From positions 1 through 64,000 of IMG/VR virus record IMGVR_UViG_3300045391_001876: a stretch of DNA of 64,000 nucleotides; one strand, 5' to 3'. The translations under genes were made by a program, and so were the position numbers. The notes beneath the pieces were generated by a model that had not been told where the DNA came from, did no database searches, and saw only the letters and a list, made by a program, of their open reading frames with translations. This DNA comes from a virus. Below are positions 11,026-63,045 of this stretch, one piece after another; position 1 is the stretch's first letter, and the number at the start of each line of letters is the position of its first letter.

Positions 11026-11040
11026 AATCCTAACAGGATC
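11026..11040. promoter_or_regulatory. operator-like palindrome AATCCTAACAGGATC
   Basis: RATCC-N5-GGATC family. Identical 15-mer at 63031. About 20 nt upstream of the TerL GTG, in the divergent gap. Confidence 0.5.
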
Positions 11041-11060
11041 GTGGCTCAAGGAGGCTCCCT

Positions 11061-12560
11061 GTGCCTCCTCGTGTCTGCGCGCCACGGTGGTTGACGCCCG
11101 TGCCCCCGGCGGATATCAGGCGTGGTGACGGCGCGGATGTGGCCGAGTTCGTCCAGACCTTCTGCAAGGTCACACAGGACACGTTCGCTGGTCCGGCCGG
11201 CACACCGATGGTGCTCCGTCCATGGCAGGTCAAGCTGCTCGGCGGTATCTTCGCGCGCCGGCCGGACGGCCGCCGTCGACACCGTGTCGCGCTGGTGGGT
11301 GTACCCCGCAAGTCCGGCAAGTCCGCGCTGAGCGCTGGTATCGCGCTGGACGGGTTGTTCTCCACCAGGGGTGGGGAGGTGTACAGCGTCGCGGCCGACC
11401 GCGACCAGGCCCGCATCGTGTTCGGCCACGCCCGCCGCATGGTGGAGTCCAGCCCGGAGCTGTCCGCGCGGTGTTCGGTGTACAGGGACGCGATCGACCT
11501 ACGGGAGACGGCCAGCGTTTACCGCTGCCTGTCCTCGGAGCACTACACCAAAGAGGGTCTGTCTCCCACGCTGGTGATCTTCGACGAGGTACACGCCCAG
11601 CCCAATGATGAGCTGTGGGAGGTGATGTCGCTGGCACAGGGTGCCCGCATCGACCCGCTTCTCCTGGGCATCACCACGGCCGGCGTCAAGTCCGACAGCA
11701 CGGGTGGGGACTCCGTGTGTTACCGGCTGTTCCAACACGGACAGCGCGTGTGCAGCGGGGAACTGGTGGACCCCACCTTCTTCATGGCCTGGTGGGCGGC
11801 GCAGGATTCGGCCGACCACACCGACCCGGCGGTCTGGCGCTCCGCTAACCCAGCGTTCGGGGACCTGCTGGACCCGGAGGACATGGCCTCGGCGGTTAAC
11901 CGCACACCGGAGAACAACTTCCGTACCAAGCGATTGAACCAGTGGGTGTCAGCCGCTCAGGCATGGCTGCCGCAAGGCTCCTGGCAGGCATGCGCTGTGC
12001 CGCAAGAGATCCCCGACCGCACCGAAGTCGTGTTGGCGTTCGATGGTTCGTTCAACAACGACTCCACGGCGCTGGTGGTGGCCACACTGGGGGAACGGCC
12101 GTACCTGGACGTGGTAGCCCTGTGGGAGCGACCGTACAACGCCGACTCGTCCTGGACGGTGCCTATCGTGGAGGTGGAGGACACTATCCGGGCCGCGTGC
12201 AAACGCTGGCATGTAAGGGAGATCGTGTGTGACCCGTACAGGTGGGCGCGCTCGTACCAGATACTGGAGGATGAGCACCTACCGATCGTGGAGTTTCCCC
12301 AGAACCCTGCTCGGATGACCCCGGCCACACAGCGCTTCTACGAGAGCGTGATGAACCGCAGCTTGACGCACTCCGGAGATCCGCGCCTGGCACGGCATCT
12401 CGACAACGCAGTGTTGAAAGTGGACAGTCGCGGTCAGCGCATCATCAAGGAGACCCGCAACAGCCCCCGCAAGATCGACCTCGCAGTGGCCGCCGTCATG
12501 GCGCTGGACCGCGCCACACAAGCTGCCCGGTCCTATGACGTGCTGTCCAGCGTCTGGTAA
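11061..12560 (+). CDS. terminase large subunit
   Basis: Walker A-like VGVPRKSGKSAL, VIFDEVH, and a C-terminal nuclease region. AAGGAGG RBS. Confidence 0.9.
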   Translation: MPPRVCAPRWLTPVPPADIRRGDGADVAEFVQTFCKVTQDTFAGPAGTPMVLRPWQVKLLGGIFARRPDGRRRHRVALVGVPRKSGKSALSAGIALDGLFSTRGGEVYSVAADRDQARIVFGHARRMVESSPELSARCSVYRDAIDLRETASVYRCLSSEHYTKEGLSPTLVIFDEVHAQPNDELWEVMSLAQGARIDPLLLGITTAGVKSDSTGGDSVCYRLFQHGQRVCSGELVDPTFFMAWWAAQDSADHTDPAVWRSANPAFGDLLDPEDMASAVNRTPENNFRTKRLNQWVSAAQAWLPQGSWQACAVPQEIPDRTEVVLAFDGSFNNDSTALVVATLGERPYLDVVALWERPYNADSSWTVPIVEVEDTIRAACKRWHVREIVCDPYRWARSYQILEDEHLPIVEFPQNPARMTPATQRFYESVMNRSLTHSGDPRLARHLDNAVLKVDSRGQRIIKETRNSPRKIDLAVAAVMALDRATQAARSYDVLSSVW

Positions 12561-12757
12561 CGCACGCAGGACGTGTAGCACAGGGGGTTCTGCTCCCAGC
12601 CCCATTGGTTGGTCTTGCGCGACCACCAACCGTGCCGGTGTTGCGGCGTCACGAAATCGAACACGTAGCCGCCATGCCCCCACGCGCGATCAATCGTCTG
12701 CCCCGTCGCGCGTTCAATGCGCCGGACACTCCGTACGGACAGCACCTGTGCGCTCAT
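12533..12757 (-). CDS. hypothetical protein (74 aa)
   Basis: ORF 12533..12874 trimmed to ATG 12757 behind AAGGAGA. Convergent with the TerL end. Confidence 0.45.
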   Translation of the reverse strand: MSAQVLSVRSVRRIERATGQTIDRAWGHGGYVFDFVTPQHRHGWWSRKTNQWGWEQNPLCYTSCVRYQTLDSTS

Positions 12758-12863
12758 CGGTACACCAATCTCCTTCGGCACAAGGCCTTTTCGCCGGCCT
12801 ACCCCGCCAACCGGCCGTTCCCGGACCGTGCCCACCGATTCCAGGCCGGGAATCCCGTTGTAG

Positions 12864-60993: not shown

Positions 60994-60999
60994 GACGTC

Positions 61000-61845
61000 C
61001 TACAGCGACGCGACGGTGGACACGGCCACATTCCCACGGGCGTCCAGCGGAGGACGGTTCGGCGGCTTGTCTGTTGGCGCATCCCACACAACTCCTCGTG
61101 TCATCTCGTCCAGGTGGTAGGTAACCACCCCGGGAAAGTGCCGCTGGTACGTGTCGTGGAACTGGGCGCTGTGCAGCGGTACGTCGGCCACGACGCTGTC
61201 CAGCCACGTCGGGTGGAGAAGCAGGTCCTTGGTCGTGTAATAGGTGGAGGAGTCACCCGTGGTCTGTATCGCGTAGGCGGCCATGCGTTCGGCCCGCTCC
61301 AGGTGGAACTGGTGTGTTTCCCACCCGCCCGGGTTGACCATGTCCACCACTACGAGCCGCCCACCCGGCGCGAGCAACTGCCTCACCTTGGGCAGTACGG
61401 TGTCCGCGTCACCGGCATGGTGTAGCGCGCGTACCGACAGCACGTAGTGGTACGGACCGAACGGCGCCGTGTGGTCGTCCATCGTTTGCCGCTGGTACCG
61501 GATGCCTTCCAGGCCACGGAGCTTGCGCGCAATCTCCAGCATGCTGCCGGACGGGTCGATACCGATCACGGACAGGCAGCGCTGCTTGAGCTGCACCGTG
61601 GACCGTCCTGTGCCGCACCCGATGTCCAGCCCGCGCGCCATCCCGTGGCGTACCGGTTGCTGGTGCACCTCGTGAACGGGCGTCCACGGGTCGTCCAGAC
61701 TCTCCCGCTCCGACATGCCCGGGTCCAGCGTCTTGTCGAGCGCGGCGGCCACCCACCCGTGCACGCTGGCGTCGATGCCCTCCCACAGAGCGCAGAAGCG
61801 TTCGTACTTTTCGGCCAGCTCGTCGAACCCTGTCGCTGTGGTCAC
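61000..61845 (-). CDS. class I SAM-dependent methyltransferase (281 aa)
   Basis: GLDIGCGTGRS (motif I) and LAPGGRLVVVD. GTG 61845 overlaps the upstream stop. Confidence 0.75.
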   Translation of the reverse strand: MTTATGFDELAEKYERFCALWEGIDASVHGWVAAALDKTLDPGMSERESLDDPWTPVHEVHQQPVRHGMARGLDIGCGTGRSTVQLKQRCLSVIGIDPSGSMLEIARKLRGLEGIRYQRQTMDDHTAPFGPYHYVLSVRALHHAGDADTVLPKVRQLLAPGGRLVVVDMVNPGGWETHQFHLERAERMAAYAIQTTGDSSTYYTTKDLLLHPTWLDSVVADVPLHSAQFHDTYQRHFPGVVTYHLDEMTRGVVWDAPTDKPPNRPPLDARGNVAVSTVASL

Positions 61846-62993
61846 TGGTGCGGCTCCTGACCCAGTACCACGCTGTGGTCCAGGAACTGATTGGTGGCCA
61901 GGGACGCACCGGTAAGCCCCGCCGGCACGGTAACCCTCCGACTGGCGTACACCGGCCTGAGGTCCCCGAGCACCTTGTCGAGACGTCCACTCGGTGCTAC
62001 GTCCAGGCTGCCGAAAACCCTGTCTGCACCGTTGGCGGCCAGTCCGTCCTCCCACATCACGCGAACCCCGTACCGCGCCTGCTCCAGGCTGTAGGAGTAC
62101 GGGGCCGGGTACTTCGCGTCCAGGTCCACGATGCGCTTCAACGCTGGGTCCGGGTTGTTGAAGAAGGCCACCGAGGCACGCTGGAGGATCGGTACCAGTT
62201 TGTGAAGACACGCGGCCTTCTCGGTGACATCGCTCTTGCGCACGATCACTGCGTTGCGGTAGTTGGGGAAGCCGGCGTCGGCCACGTACGCGTACCGCGT
62301 CTGCACATGGAGTTGGTTGTAGATGTAGACCTCGTTGGTGGAGAACCCACCGACTGCCGCGCTGCGCTTCTCCATCAGGTGGGTGGGAGATCCGTCGTAA
62401 CTGGTGTTGAGCTGCTTGGCGCGCAGGATGCCGGACCCGACCAGGTAGTCCACCTGTGCCGTGGGGAACGTGAACACCGTGTCGTTGGTCTGGCCGATAT
62501 CGGTGATCGTGTTCCAGTCCGGGTGCACCTTGGCATCCCAGATGTACACCACAGGGTCCACCTGGAGCGGTGCCATCACGGCCACCGTGGGGTTGTCCTG
62601 GGTCCAGGACGCGATCACGTCGTCCATGGCCTCCTGACCGAGGTCGATGTCAGGGTGCACCTTCATCAGCTCGGAGGCTTGGATACCCGACACGGCCGGT
62701 CCCCCGGCCATCAGCTCGATACGCACACCGGTCGGCTTGCCCTGGTCGTACAGGTCACCGGTCACGCTCTTGTGGTTGGTGTCCACGGTGACGTTGCCGC
62801 CCAGGAGCTGGAACTGTGGGCCTTGCGTGCTCTCCGGGAACCAGGACAGCGCAAACTTGATCAGCGGTTTGCACACCCCGGCCAGCGGCCCGCTGCTGCT
62901 GGCCGTACTGGTGGTGACCGCTGGCGAGCTGGAGCACGCTGTTGCGGCCAGAACCACCGCCGCCAGCGCGATCAGTACCCGTCTGGATCTCAT
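61842..62993 (-). CDS. lipoprotein resembling an ABC-transporter solute-binding protein (NMT1/SsuA-like, tentative)
   Basis: MRSRRVLIALAAVVLAATAC signal peptide with lipobox. Mature part begins ...KFALSWFPESTQGPQFQLLGG and has SBP-like length and pattern. Confidence 0.6.
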   Translation of the reverse strand: MRSRRVLIALAAVVLAATACSSSPAVTTSTASSSGPLAGVCKPLIKFALSWFPESTQGPQFQLLGGNVTVDTNHKSVTGDLYDQGKPTGVRIELMAGGPAVSGIQASELMKVHPDIDLGQEAMDDVIASWTQDNPTVAVMAPLQVDPVVYIWDAKVHPDWNTITDIGQTNDTVFTFPTAQVDYLVGSGILRAKQLNTSYDGSPTHLMEKRSAAVGGFSTNEVYIYNQLHVQTRYAYVADAGFPNYRNAVIVRKSDVTEKAACLHKLVPILQRASVAFFNNPDPALKRIVDLDAKYPAPYSYSLEQARYGVRVMWEDGLAANGADRVFGSLDVAPSGRLDKVLGDLRPVYASRRVTVPAGLTGASLATNQFLDHSVVLGQEPHQ

Positions 62994-63030
62994 GCGTAGC
63001 CCTTCTGTACTGGGGGTTTAGGTCGTAGGT

Positions 63031-63045
63031 AATCCTAACAGGATC
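63031..63045. promoter_or_regulatory. operator-like palindrome AATCCTAACAGGATC
   Basis: Identical to 11026-11040. 37 nt upstream (minus strand) of the lipoprotein ATG, in the divergent gap. Confidence 0.5.

Follow-up and report, generated by a model that had tools for sequence, protein, structure and literature searches.

Seven intergenic copies of a 15-bp palindrome in a temperate phage known from metagenomes: a likely operator set of its switch

The DNA analysed here, called the window below, is a stretch of 64,000 nucleotides (nt) of a virus (positions 1 to 64,000 of the IMG/VR record IMGVR_UViG_3300045391_001876), and this work concerns a short palindrome, M1, found between its genes in the company of two further palindromes, M2 and M3. 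The window, whose GC content is 64.8%, represents 64 kb of a contig of 68.59-68.60 kb whose ends close on themselves, so that it looks circular; this contig was assembled from the Joint Genome Institute (JGI) metagenome 3300037474 and, at nearly equal size, from the Logan run SRR12692950. The genome which we rebuilt has 68,569 base pairs (bp), 4,569 nt of which are outside the window, between its position 64000 and its position 1 (L082 4239-8673). Our gene map was built from codon statistics and agrees with the gene calls stored for the source contig. It contains genes for TerS, TerL, the portal and the capsid, a sugar-modification cluster, a lysin, a serine integrase, a PD-(D/E)XK nuclease, a primase-helicase and PolA, and two helix-turn-helix (HTH) regulators are encoded at the repressor/Cro-like switch, near the M1 copy at 45534. 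The phage is temperate, siphovirus-like and belongs to high-GC bacteria; its lineage has not been described before and is known so far from metagenomes alone. The coordinates of the features discussed are collected in Table 1.

A preliminary description of the window had listed seven copies of RATCC-N5-GGATC, with a chance expectation of 0.1-0.2, and had seen none of them inside coding sequence. We scanned the window for RATCC-N5-GGATY and found exactly seven copies, at the positions and with the sequences which had been listed; the number is still seven in the rebuilt genome. Shuffled sequences preserving the dinucleotides are expected to hold 0.08-0.09 copies, with a maximum of 1-2, and not one shuffle in 100 reaches seven. 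When one mismatch at most to GATCC-N5-GGATC is allowed, the same seven sites are obtained with no extras, and the class with two mismatches (21 further sites) is at chance, giving 28 sites in all for 25.3 expected. The scan and the gene map place every copy in an intergenic gap, as had been claimed. Non-coding DNA makes up 10.95% of the window, and the probability of this arrangement under random placement is P ~2e-7. The identical 15-mers at 11026 and 63031 could have been a wrap-around or repeat artefact, which we rejected: at an offset of 52,005 nt the identity is 27%, and the 15 nt alone match.

The consensus first proposed is better written rATCC(T)-N3-(A)GGATC. The copies beginning with A (n=4) share one orientation, on the plus strand. 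Fourteen complete sites could be gathered from seven sources; the arms ATCC and GGAT are invariant in 13 of them, the exception being a GGTT in the relative L165, while the centre is variable and no change in one member of a pair is compensated by a change in the other. As read from the sequences, the centres of the half-sites are ~9-10 bp apart, about one helical turn. These fixed arms, this varying centre and the lack of compensatory pairs argue for the sequence-specific recognition of duplex DNA by a symmetric dimer and not for an RNA recognized by its structure only. The centre TAACA is kept in three sites only (11026, 63031 and a site of the relative L002), whose opposite strand reads TGTTAGGAT, an extended -10, and each of these sites faces a leftward operon. 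The distances within pairs of M1 sites are 174, 175, 184 and 101 bp, all of them 5.5-7.0 bp past a whole number of turns; this phase is no more than a hint of looping, as two of the four pairs are related by descent.

Table 1. Positions of the palindromes, predicted promoters and genes discussed in the text
Feature	Position in window	Strand	Sequence or elements	Context
M1	11026..11040		AATCCTAACAGGATC	Divergent gap between leftward accessory operon (10907->9589) and TerL (11061); minus strand TGTTAGGAT, extended -10-like
M1a	40199..40213		AATCCTCCAAGGATC	Spacer/-10 of predicted leftward promoter P_left
M1b	40373..40387		GATCCTGACAGGATC	~+16..+30 of predicted rightward integrase-operon promoter; ends 25 nt before start codon 40413
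M1	45534..45548		GATCCCGCAAGGATC	Repressor/Cro-like switch gap, 18 nt before start 45567
M1	53401..53415		AATCCTCGTTGGATC	Abuts 9-bp-stem hairpin 53374-53400, after stop of gene 52747-53373
M1	53502..53516		GATCCGCGCAGGATC	67 nt before start 53584; 101 bp from 53401; minus strand followed by T6, terminator-like
M1	63031..63045		AATCCTAACAGGATC	Identical to 11026; minus strand TGTTAGGAT, 37 nt before start 62993 of leftward lipoprotein-like/methyltransferase operon
M2	40171..40184		TACGCGGCCGCGTA	14 nt from M1a; kept in L084 (16152), L165 (9331) and L167
M2	45492..45505		TACGCGGTCGCGTA	28 nt before M1 at 45534; kept in L122, L165 (5206) and L169 (635); absent in L170
M2	53439..53452		TACGCTGCCGCGTA	In the 53.4-kb gap, flanked by M1 at 53401 and 53502
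P_left (predicted)	-35 at plus-strand 40220-40225; -10 at plus-strand 40197-40202	-	-35 TTGCCG, 17 nt, -10 GATTAT	
Integrase-operon promoter block	40310..40361	+	M3a GTACGTACC (40310-40318); -10 TAACAT (40345-40350); M3b GGTACGTAC (40353-40361)	
Serine integrase	41849-43390			
ParB-family protein, 329 aa	38478..39467	-	ParB/Srx-like N-domain and HTH	In P_left operon; minority candidate for M1 binding
XRE-family repressor candidate, 135 aa	44941..45348	-		Divergent from early operon; candidate for M1 or M2
Cro-like HTH_3 protein, 68 aa	45855..46061	+	Recognition helix VTPATIHRLMAG	Candidate M1 binder
GTCCA-N3-TGGAC	1255, 3237, 9310, 16026, 25952, 30492, 32009, 33701, 36068, 45166, 46554, 48013, 48085, 51182			
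7-deazaguanine cluster	5011-5691 (ParB_N-like); 7134-7559 (QueD); 7556-8278 (QueE); 8275-8910 (FolE)			

Searches started from TerL, a tail gene, the repressor and the ParB-family and Cro-like proteins led to the relatives of this phage, which are designated L001-L003, L084/L163/L164, L122, L165, L167, L169 and L170, L084 being the contig 3300045391_007597. Proteins are 55-90% identical between the window and these relatives, and most of the intergenic DNA cannot be aligned. The TerL of the window is 41-49% identical to those of phiC31-like Streptomyces phages and of a Pontimonas phage (41% to phiC31). No close known phage was found by megablast among 50,697 phage records, and the 185,579 reference (GTDB) genomes searched with the primase-helicase and the ParB-family alignment yielded neither a relative nor a lysogen or host. 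The primase-helicase has no relatives in IMG/VR either, where the Cro-like alignment also found nothing, and PolA has only matches of at most 42% identity in the metagenome collection (at most 32% where most of the protein is covered). Pfam, PHROGs, NCBIfam and PADLOC searches of the operons with M1 sites at their heads came back nearly all blank.

The gap between the integrase operon and the ParB-family operon contains two M1 sites, M1a and M1b, in the window, in L084 and in L167, at distances of 174, 184 and 175 bp respectively; L165 has the left one. In the alignment of this gap (A4) the surroundings have diverged and islands of identity remain, which are, in order, M2 (TACGCG-N2-CGCGTA), M1a, CSGCAA, GTACGTACC, ACCGAGGT...GTARCAT, GGTACGTAC and M1b. 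The island CSGCAA lies 6-8 nt after M1a; on the minus strand it reads as a -35, TTGCSS, which is followed after 17-18 nt by a -10, GATNNT, the first four bases of which are the end of M1a. Thus M1a takes up the spacer of the predicted leftward promoter and runs into the beginning of its -10. This layout, with a -10 beginning inside the site, was read directly in L084, L165 and L167 as well, and M1a together with M2 is kept at this promoter in L084/L163, L165 and L167. On the other side of the gap, in each of the window, L084 and L167, M1b starts exactly 22 nt after the TARCAT of the -10, and its end is 24-25 nt away from the start codon downstream. The two M3 sequences flank the -35 and -10 of the integrase operon, being centred at ~-43 and ~+1, and are identical to the base in L084 and L167; M3 looks like a third operator, specific to this promoter.

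In the switch gap the order is M2, 21-28 nt, M1, 18-19 nt and the start of a gene of 93 amino acids (aa), in the window, in L165 (with one mismatch in M1) and in L169. The right end of the M2 copy overlaps a conserved TAGAAC (45504-45509), a predicted promoter element. The equivalents of this M1 site are found at 5165 in L165, 674 in L169 and 708 in L170; L122 is cut by the end of its contig 10 nt into M1. In L170, M1 is at an equal distance, a second, imperfect M1 lies 65 bp upstream and there is no M2. The 93-aa gene (open reading frame (ORF) 45567-45848, plus strand), the first of the early operon, in which the Cro-like protein is encoded too, was missed by gene finders and has a low GC content at third codon positions; as its product is 55-60% identical to those of genes called in L165, L169 and L170, we take it to be a real gene. 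This matters for the distance of 18-70 nt upstream of a first gene which had been given for every site. Such a distance is correct for 11026, 40373, 53502 and 63031, and for 45534 if this ORF is accepted. It is not correct for 40199, whose nearest starts are 129 nt and 199 nt away, nor for 53401, which follows a stop codon by 27 nt and is separated by 168 nt from the next start; in our count three of the seven sites fail. The -10/-35-like elements of the M1 gaps were read by consensus and stand at fixed distances in relatives. We tried a fixed rule of the -10 plus 22 nt for all M1 sites and rejected it, since it is valid for the integrase and switch promoters only.

The site at 11026 lies next to TerL, and the preliminary description had tied late packaging to the switch on that account. 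In L002, GATCCTAACAGGATC is found at 8435, 47 nt before a leftward gene, and the next gene is a homologue of the window gene 10372-10728. This site is 1.5 kb from TerL and heads the homologous leftward accessory operon; in L001-L003, TerL is preceded by another palindrome, TTACGTCATGACGTAA, and not by M1. Hence 11026 probably came to lie close to TerL through a shorter insert, by accident and with no link to packaging, and we doubt the tie. The palindrome TTACGTCATGACGTAA stands ~40 nt ahead of TerL and recurs past the lysis genes (L001 2589, L002 9950, L003 9957, L084 12736, which is L163 6112), and classes of operators seem to have been swapped between lineages, the window having M1 at the TerL position. 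A possible 6-bp hairpin, GGAGGC-tccctgt-GCCTCC, at 11047-11069 encloses the ribosome site and the GTG start of TerL in the window; it may come by chance from Pro-Pro codons.

The scan by eye had been incomplete in the gaps, where it had missed M2 and M3 (GGTACGTAC), both of which would compete with M1 for the same two HTH proteins. M2, TACGC-N4-GCGTA, has three sites in the window (6 matches on the two strands for 1.44 expected), all intergenic and each 14-28 nt from an M1. It is probably the operator of the other regulator of the switch. Another repeated intergenic element, ACGTGACACGT / CGTGTCACG, is found at 4067-4077, 4963-4973, 27341-27350 and 59336-59344, and lies in gaps which do not contain M1.

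We consider it likely that M1 is a DNA operator, recognized in double-stranded form by a dimer of an HTH switch regulator of the phage itself. A single protein could then shut five to six promoters together, M1 lying over their cores or just downstream of them. The targets would be the early rightward promoter of the switch and the promoter of the integrase operon, with M1 at ~+16..+30 in both, the leftward promoter of the ParB-family operon, with M1 in the spacer and the -10, the two leftward accessory operons, with a -10 inside M1, and the M1 pair inside the early operon at 53.4 kb. At the leftward promoters, the bound regulator would occlude the -10 or the spacer (the positions of the sites are observed, the promoters we infer); at the integrase and early rightward promoters, it would block clearance or elongation. 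A second M1, 101-184 bp away, may help in this block by cooperation through looping, and the same promoters would be further controlled by another regulator, acting at M2, and by a factor acting at M3. The early interpretation of the sites as a regulon of the XRE/Cro-like switch is retained in that they behave like an operator set tied to the switch, located in gaps with predicted promoters and kept in position in five or six relatives whose flanks cannot be aligned.

Two proteins of the switch are the obvious candidates for binding M1. The HTH of the Cro-like protein (GYTPAAFA..GVTPATIHRLMAGTRRASPALA) is near-invariant in the window, L165, L169 and L170, and M1 is likewise. The XRE repressors of the window and of L165 are 38% identical overall and ~60% identical over the HTH; this family has two clusters in public data, and L170, the lineage which does not have M2, possesses the most divergent HTH. 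Since M2 is lost precisely where the XRE HTH differs most, co-variation weakly favours the pairing of M1 with the Cro-like protein and of M2 with the XRE repressor. The paired M1 sites, which suit a repressor having an oligomerisation domain, would suggest the XRE repressor instead. Judging from these sequences, we tentatively place the Cro-like protein, which fits slightly better, at the head of the candidates, with rather less than even confidence. Binding by the XRE repressor is doubtful, as is binding by any other protein to the same degree, and a sharing of M1 between the Cro-like and XRE proteins appears improbable. These four weights exhaust the possibilities and were not made conditional on M1 being an operator; the three options with a phage HTH protein, taken together, amount to a rather likely case. 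If the Cro-like protein is the binder, its role in lytic growth would be to turn off integration together with the ParB-family and accessory operons, the early operon being self-limited; with the XRE repressor as binder, it is in the lysogen that these promoters would be kept silent. A strong hairpin with a 15-bp stem and a T-rich tail (5 T in 8 bases) at 44956-44992 lies inside the 3' end of the predicted repressor ORF, convergent with the gene 44447-44944, and the C-terminus of the repressor overlaps this terminator.

Several points weigh against an operator set of the switch. Three classes of palindrome (M1, M2 and M3) are found in the same gaps, for which there are at least four candidate DNA-binding proteins, and the assignment of proteins is uncertain, as it rests on weak co-variation across six lineages. 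The sites 45534 and 40373 lie in the presumed transcribed leader, which is a less common place for a repressor, and 53401 directly follows a terminator-like hairpin with no promoter evident. A generic sigma-70 scan found none of the promoters, each of which is a reading by consensus, and every relative is a metagenomic fragment.

The position of 45534 and 40373 also bears on the alternative already raised in the preliminary description, namely that M1 acts as RNA, a stem of 5-6 bp with a loop of 3-5 nt in the 5' leader, through stability, through masking or exposure of the ribosome site or as a protein target like boxB of lambda. Both sites stand at ~+16..+30 of conserved promoter-like elements, 18-25 nt before start codons, with a spacing kept in relatives; the M1 hairpin has the geometry of boxB, that is a 5-bp stem and a 5-nt loop; and the 57-aa product of 40413-40586, the gene right after 40373, has a weak match to Phage_ProQ_C_like and is a candidate RNA binder. 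However, the 14 sites show no compensatory change, and a fixed stem with a free loop is the opposite of what boxB recognition requires. The stems of these weak hairpins fold with -5 to -8 kcal/mol, energies which are not unusual relative to shuffles (z-scores between +0.1 and -2.1), and no Rfam family is matched. The sites 11026, 63031 and that of L002 contain a probable -10, so that the leftward transcripts would not include M1, 40199 is inside a promoter core, and L084 keeps M1b without the ProQ-like gene. We therefore regard a role as RNA as quite unlikely. M1 might also be a structural punctuation (a terminator or processing hairpin) or a recombination sequence at module boundaries. The minus strand of 53502 is followed by T6, 45534, 53401 and the L002 site each adjoin a strong hairpin, and the identical 11026 and 63031 flank accessory modules. 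This explanation is the least probable of those considered: a T-run is present at one of the seven sites, termination would call for a stronger stem than one of 5 bp, gaps with divergent promoters need no termination, the flanks have no similarity to each other, and the position of M1 with respect to the promoter elements is kept to the base pair.

The ParB-family protein 38478-39467 might bind M1 as KorB of plasmid RK2 binds its operators, with a small HTH partner on M2 in the role of KorA. The label ParB-HTH given to this protein is supported by its fold: the AlphaFold2 (AF2) model has a predicted local distance difference test (pLDDT) score of 79.9, and the top matches of Foldseek are Noc, ParB, Spo0J and KorB (E 9e-7 to 1e-3; E 1e-6 to 1e-4 for a likeness extending over 210-240 aligned columns). 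Sequence searches against PDB and Pfam gave no significant match, and the fold search alone succeeded; the family comprises nine clusters, all metagenomic. The operon of this protein is headed by M1a and M2 in four lineages, and M2 is within 7-28 nt of M1 wherever the M2 region occurs. However, the putative recognition helix varies (PLSTLEKEV, PLARLERER, QPAALARAV) though the phages keep identical M1, M2 and M3, and L166 has a homologue with 46% identity but neither M1 nor M2. The nucleotide-binding box is G-N/L-H-R-L-x-A, within a family-invariant motif G-x-H-R-x-x-A (SGNHRLAAY), and not the CTP-binding GERRxR; moreover, ParB-family sites are continuous palindromes, whereas the centre of M1 has 5 bp that are free. 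Such a role is unlikely in our opinion. Were it true, we would have a phage version of the global silencing of plasmids by KorB and KorA, with the integration, early and accessory operons under a ParB-fold protein. Finally, M1 could be recognized by a factor of the host, either a transcription factor into whose regulon the phage has inserted itself or a host or phage enzyme acting on GGATC or GATC by methylation, nicking or restriction. Indeed, GATC occurs once or twice in M1 and a pair of GGATC stand inverted to each other, GGATC is the recognition sequence of known type IIS enzymes, and GGATCC is absent from the window. Yet GATC (303 copies) and GGATC (71 copies) have their expected frequency in the window, with neither avoidance nor enrichment outside M1; no DNA methyltransferase was identified near the sites, those found being of the small-molecule or sugar type; we know of no actinobacterial regulator motif matching M1; and M1 is strictly co-located with the phage switch elements M2 and M3 in all lineages. 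A host factor is very unlikely, and we keep the operator of a phage HTH regulator as our preferred interpretation.

The closest described system to such an operator set is that of the repressor c of the Streptomyces actinophage phiC31, whose operators are the conserved inverted repeats (CIR). We derived the motif from the phiC31 genome (AJ006589), which contains 15 exact TACTCACGTGAGTA sites, all intergenic. In both phages, which are temperate and have related terminases, a short palindrome is confined to intergenic gaps throughout the genome, and one CIR lies between the leftward gp32, transcribed in the lysogen, and TerL, like 11026 in the window. The core TACTCACGTGAGTA is however unrelated to M1, and no homologue of the repressor was found in the full genome (tblastn of phiC31 c, E <= 0.01). 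M1 has fewer sites (seven), none of them between late genes, the XRE and Cro-like genes of the switch form here a small divergent pair, and two other palindromes occupy the same gaps as M1.

The form of M1 recalls the operators of CI and Cro in the lambdoid phages, 434 and P22, which are two-fold symmetric sites of 14-17 bp whose outer arms are conserved and whose centre is free; they lie where divergent promoters separate the repressor gene from a cro-like early operon. In these phages extra distant sites allow cooperation or looping. In the window, by contrast, the M1 site of the switch is ~20 nt downstream of the presumed -10 and not over it, the switch has one M1 and one M2 instead of three tandem operators, and further copies of M1 stand at the integrase and accessory operons. 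The repressors of actinophages such as the mycobacteriophages BPs (gp33) and those of Cluster A have several to many sites beyond the main switch, some of them downstream of promoters where they block elongation (PMC4557955, PMC9283540, PMC6550527). The stoperators of Cluster A are asymmetric 13-14-mers bound by a monomer, oriented with transcription, present in 20-30 copies per genome and often situated within genes or at their ends, whereas M1 is symmetric, strictly intergenic and present in seven copies. KorB of RK2 is a ParB-family global repressor with operators at many promoters and with KorA as its partner (PMC11790492). The likeness to the window consists in a ParB-fold protein encoded by an operon which the motif heads, a palindrome at many promoters of a mobile element, and a second operator alongside at some of them; the differences are the box which is not GERRxR, the unconserved recognition helix and the 5-bp free centre of M1 as opposed to a continuous OB of 13 bp.

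If the interpretation is right, a single 15-bp operator ties together the early promoter, the integrase operon, the ParB-family operon and two accessory operons, and this provides a wiring diagram of the lysis-lysogeny switch for a lineage of phages known from metagenomes only. It would also provide a compact, portable pair of operator and regulator for high-GC hosts, and M1 with M2 could serve as a marker of related switches in metagenomes. The general understanding of phage regulation is unchanged, repeated palindromic operators in intergenic gaps being an expected solution.

We searched IMG/VR with patterns of this kind. A composite of M2 and M1 returned the known relative and two chance matches inside a helicase gene. 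Patterns with two M1 sites returned unrelated phages having GATCC..GGATC repeats of their own, none with the M1 consensus or M2, in a scan which was not exhaustive since it missed the known pair of L084 (16173/16357, with a gap of 169), though this pair fits the pattern. One of the unrelated viral contigs, IMGVR_UViG_3300031994_000051 (91 kb, GC 0.42-0.46), has 62 copies of GATCC-N5-GGATC in the four loci which we fetched (L124, L139, L143 and L160), mostly GATCCCAnTGGGATC. This is a different and far denser system.

Some other features of the genome were noted. The part outside the window encodes, all leftward, an HTH_3 protein of 87 aa, a DUF3846 protein and a DUF6318 protein, and has neither M1 nor M2. 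A 7-deazaguanine DNA-modification cluster at 5011-8910 directly precedes TerS and is 67-82% identical in L002 and L003. It includes a conserved gene of 361 aa (5660-6745) which has no Pfam match and is possibly a candidate DNA transglycosylase. The divergent gap before the 7-deazaguanine/TerS operon (4903-5010) is one of those which carry the element ACGTGACACGT / CGTGTCACG. The presence of methyltransferase, epimerase and glycosyltransferase genes among the structural genes (cluster 19104-23147, Pfam on the source contig) suggests that virion proteins are glycosylated.

Finally we must note that a palindrome unrelated to M1, GTCCA-N3-TGGAC (consensus GTCCAC[T/A]GTGGAC), occurs in 14 copies for 0.14 expected from shuffles, all of them in coding sequence and in genes of both orientations. 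Twelve of these copies are in one codon frame, G TCC ANN NTG GAC, which encodes Ser-x-Val/Leu/Met-Asp. The proteome contains 15 peptides of this type (4.2 expected), and codon usage predicts that 1.14 of them would be encoded as the motif, against 12 observed. In close relatives the copies number 0-1 and the orthologous codons specify other residues (PSALD vs PSTLD; VQVD, AIVD and AFAD vs SSVD, SIVD and SIVD). This means that the motif was gained repeatedly, by changes which are partly non-synonymous, and these gains reflect selection on the DNA. In the distant phage L166, 18 kb contain 3 copies, and neither M1 nor M2 is present. In its form and spread the motif resembles parS-like or stoperator-like sites, and it is this palindrome, not M1, which is the most unusual feature that we met in the window.

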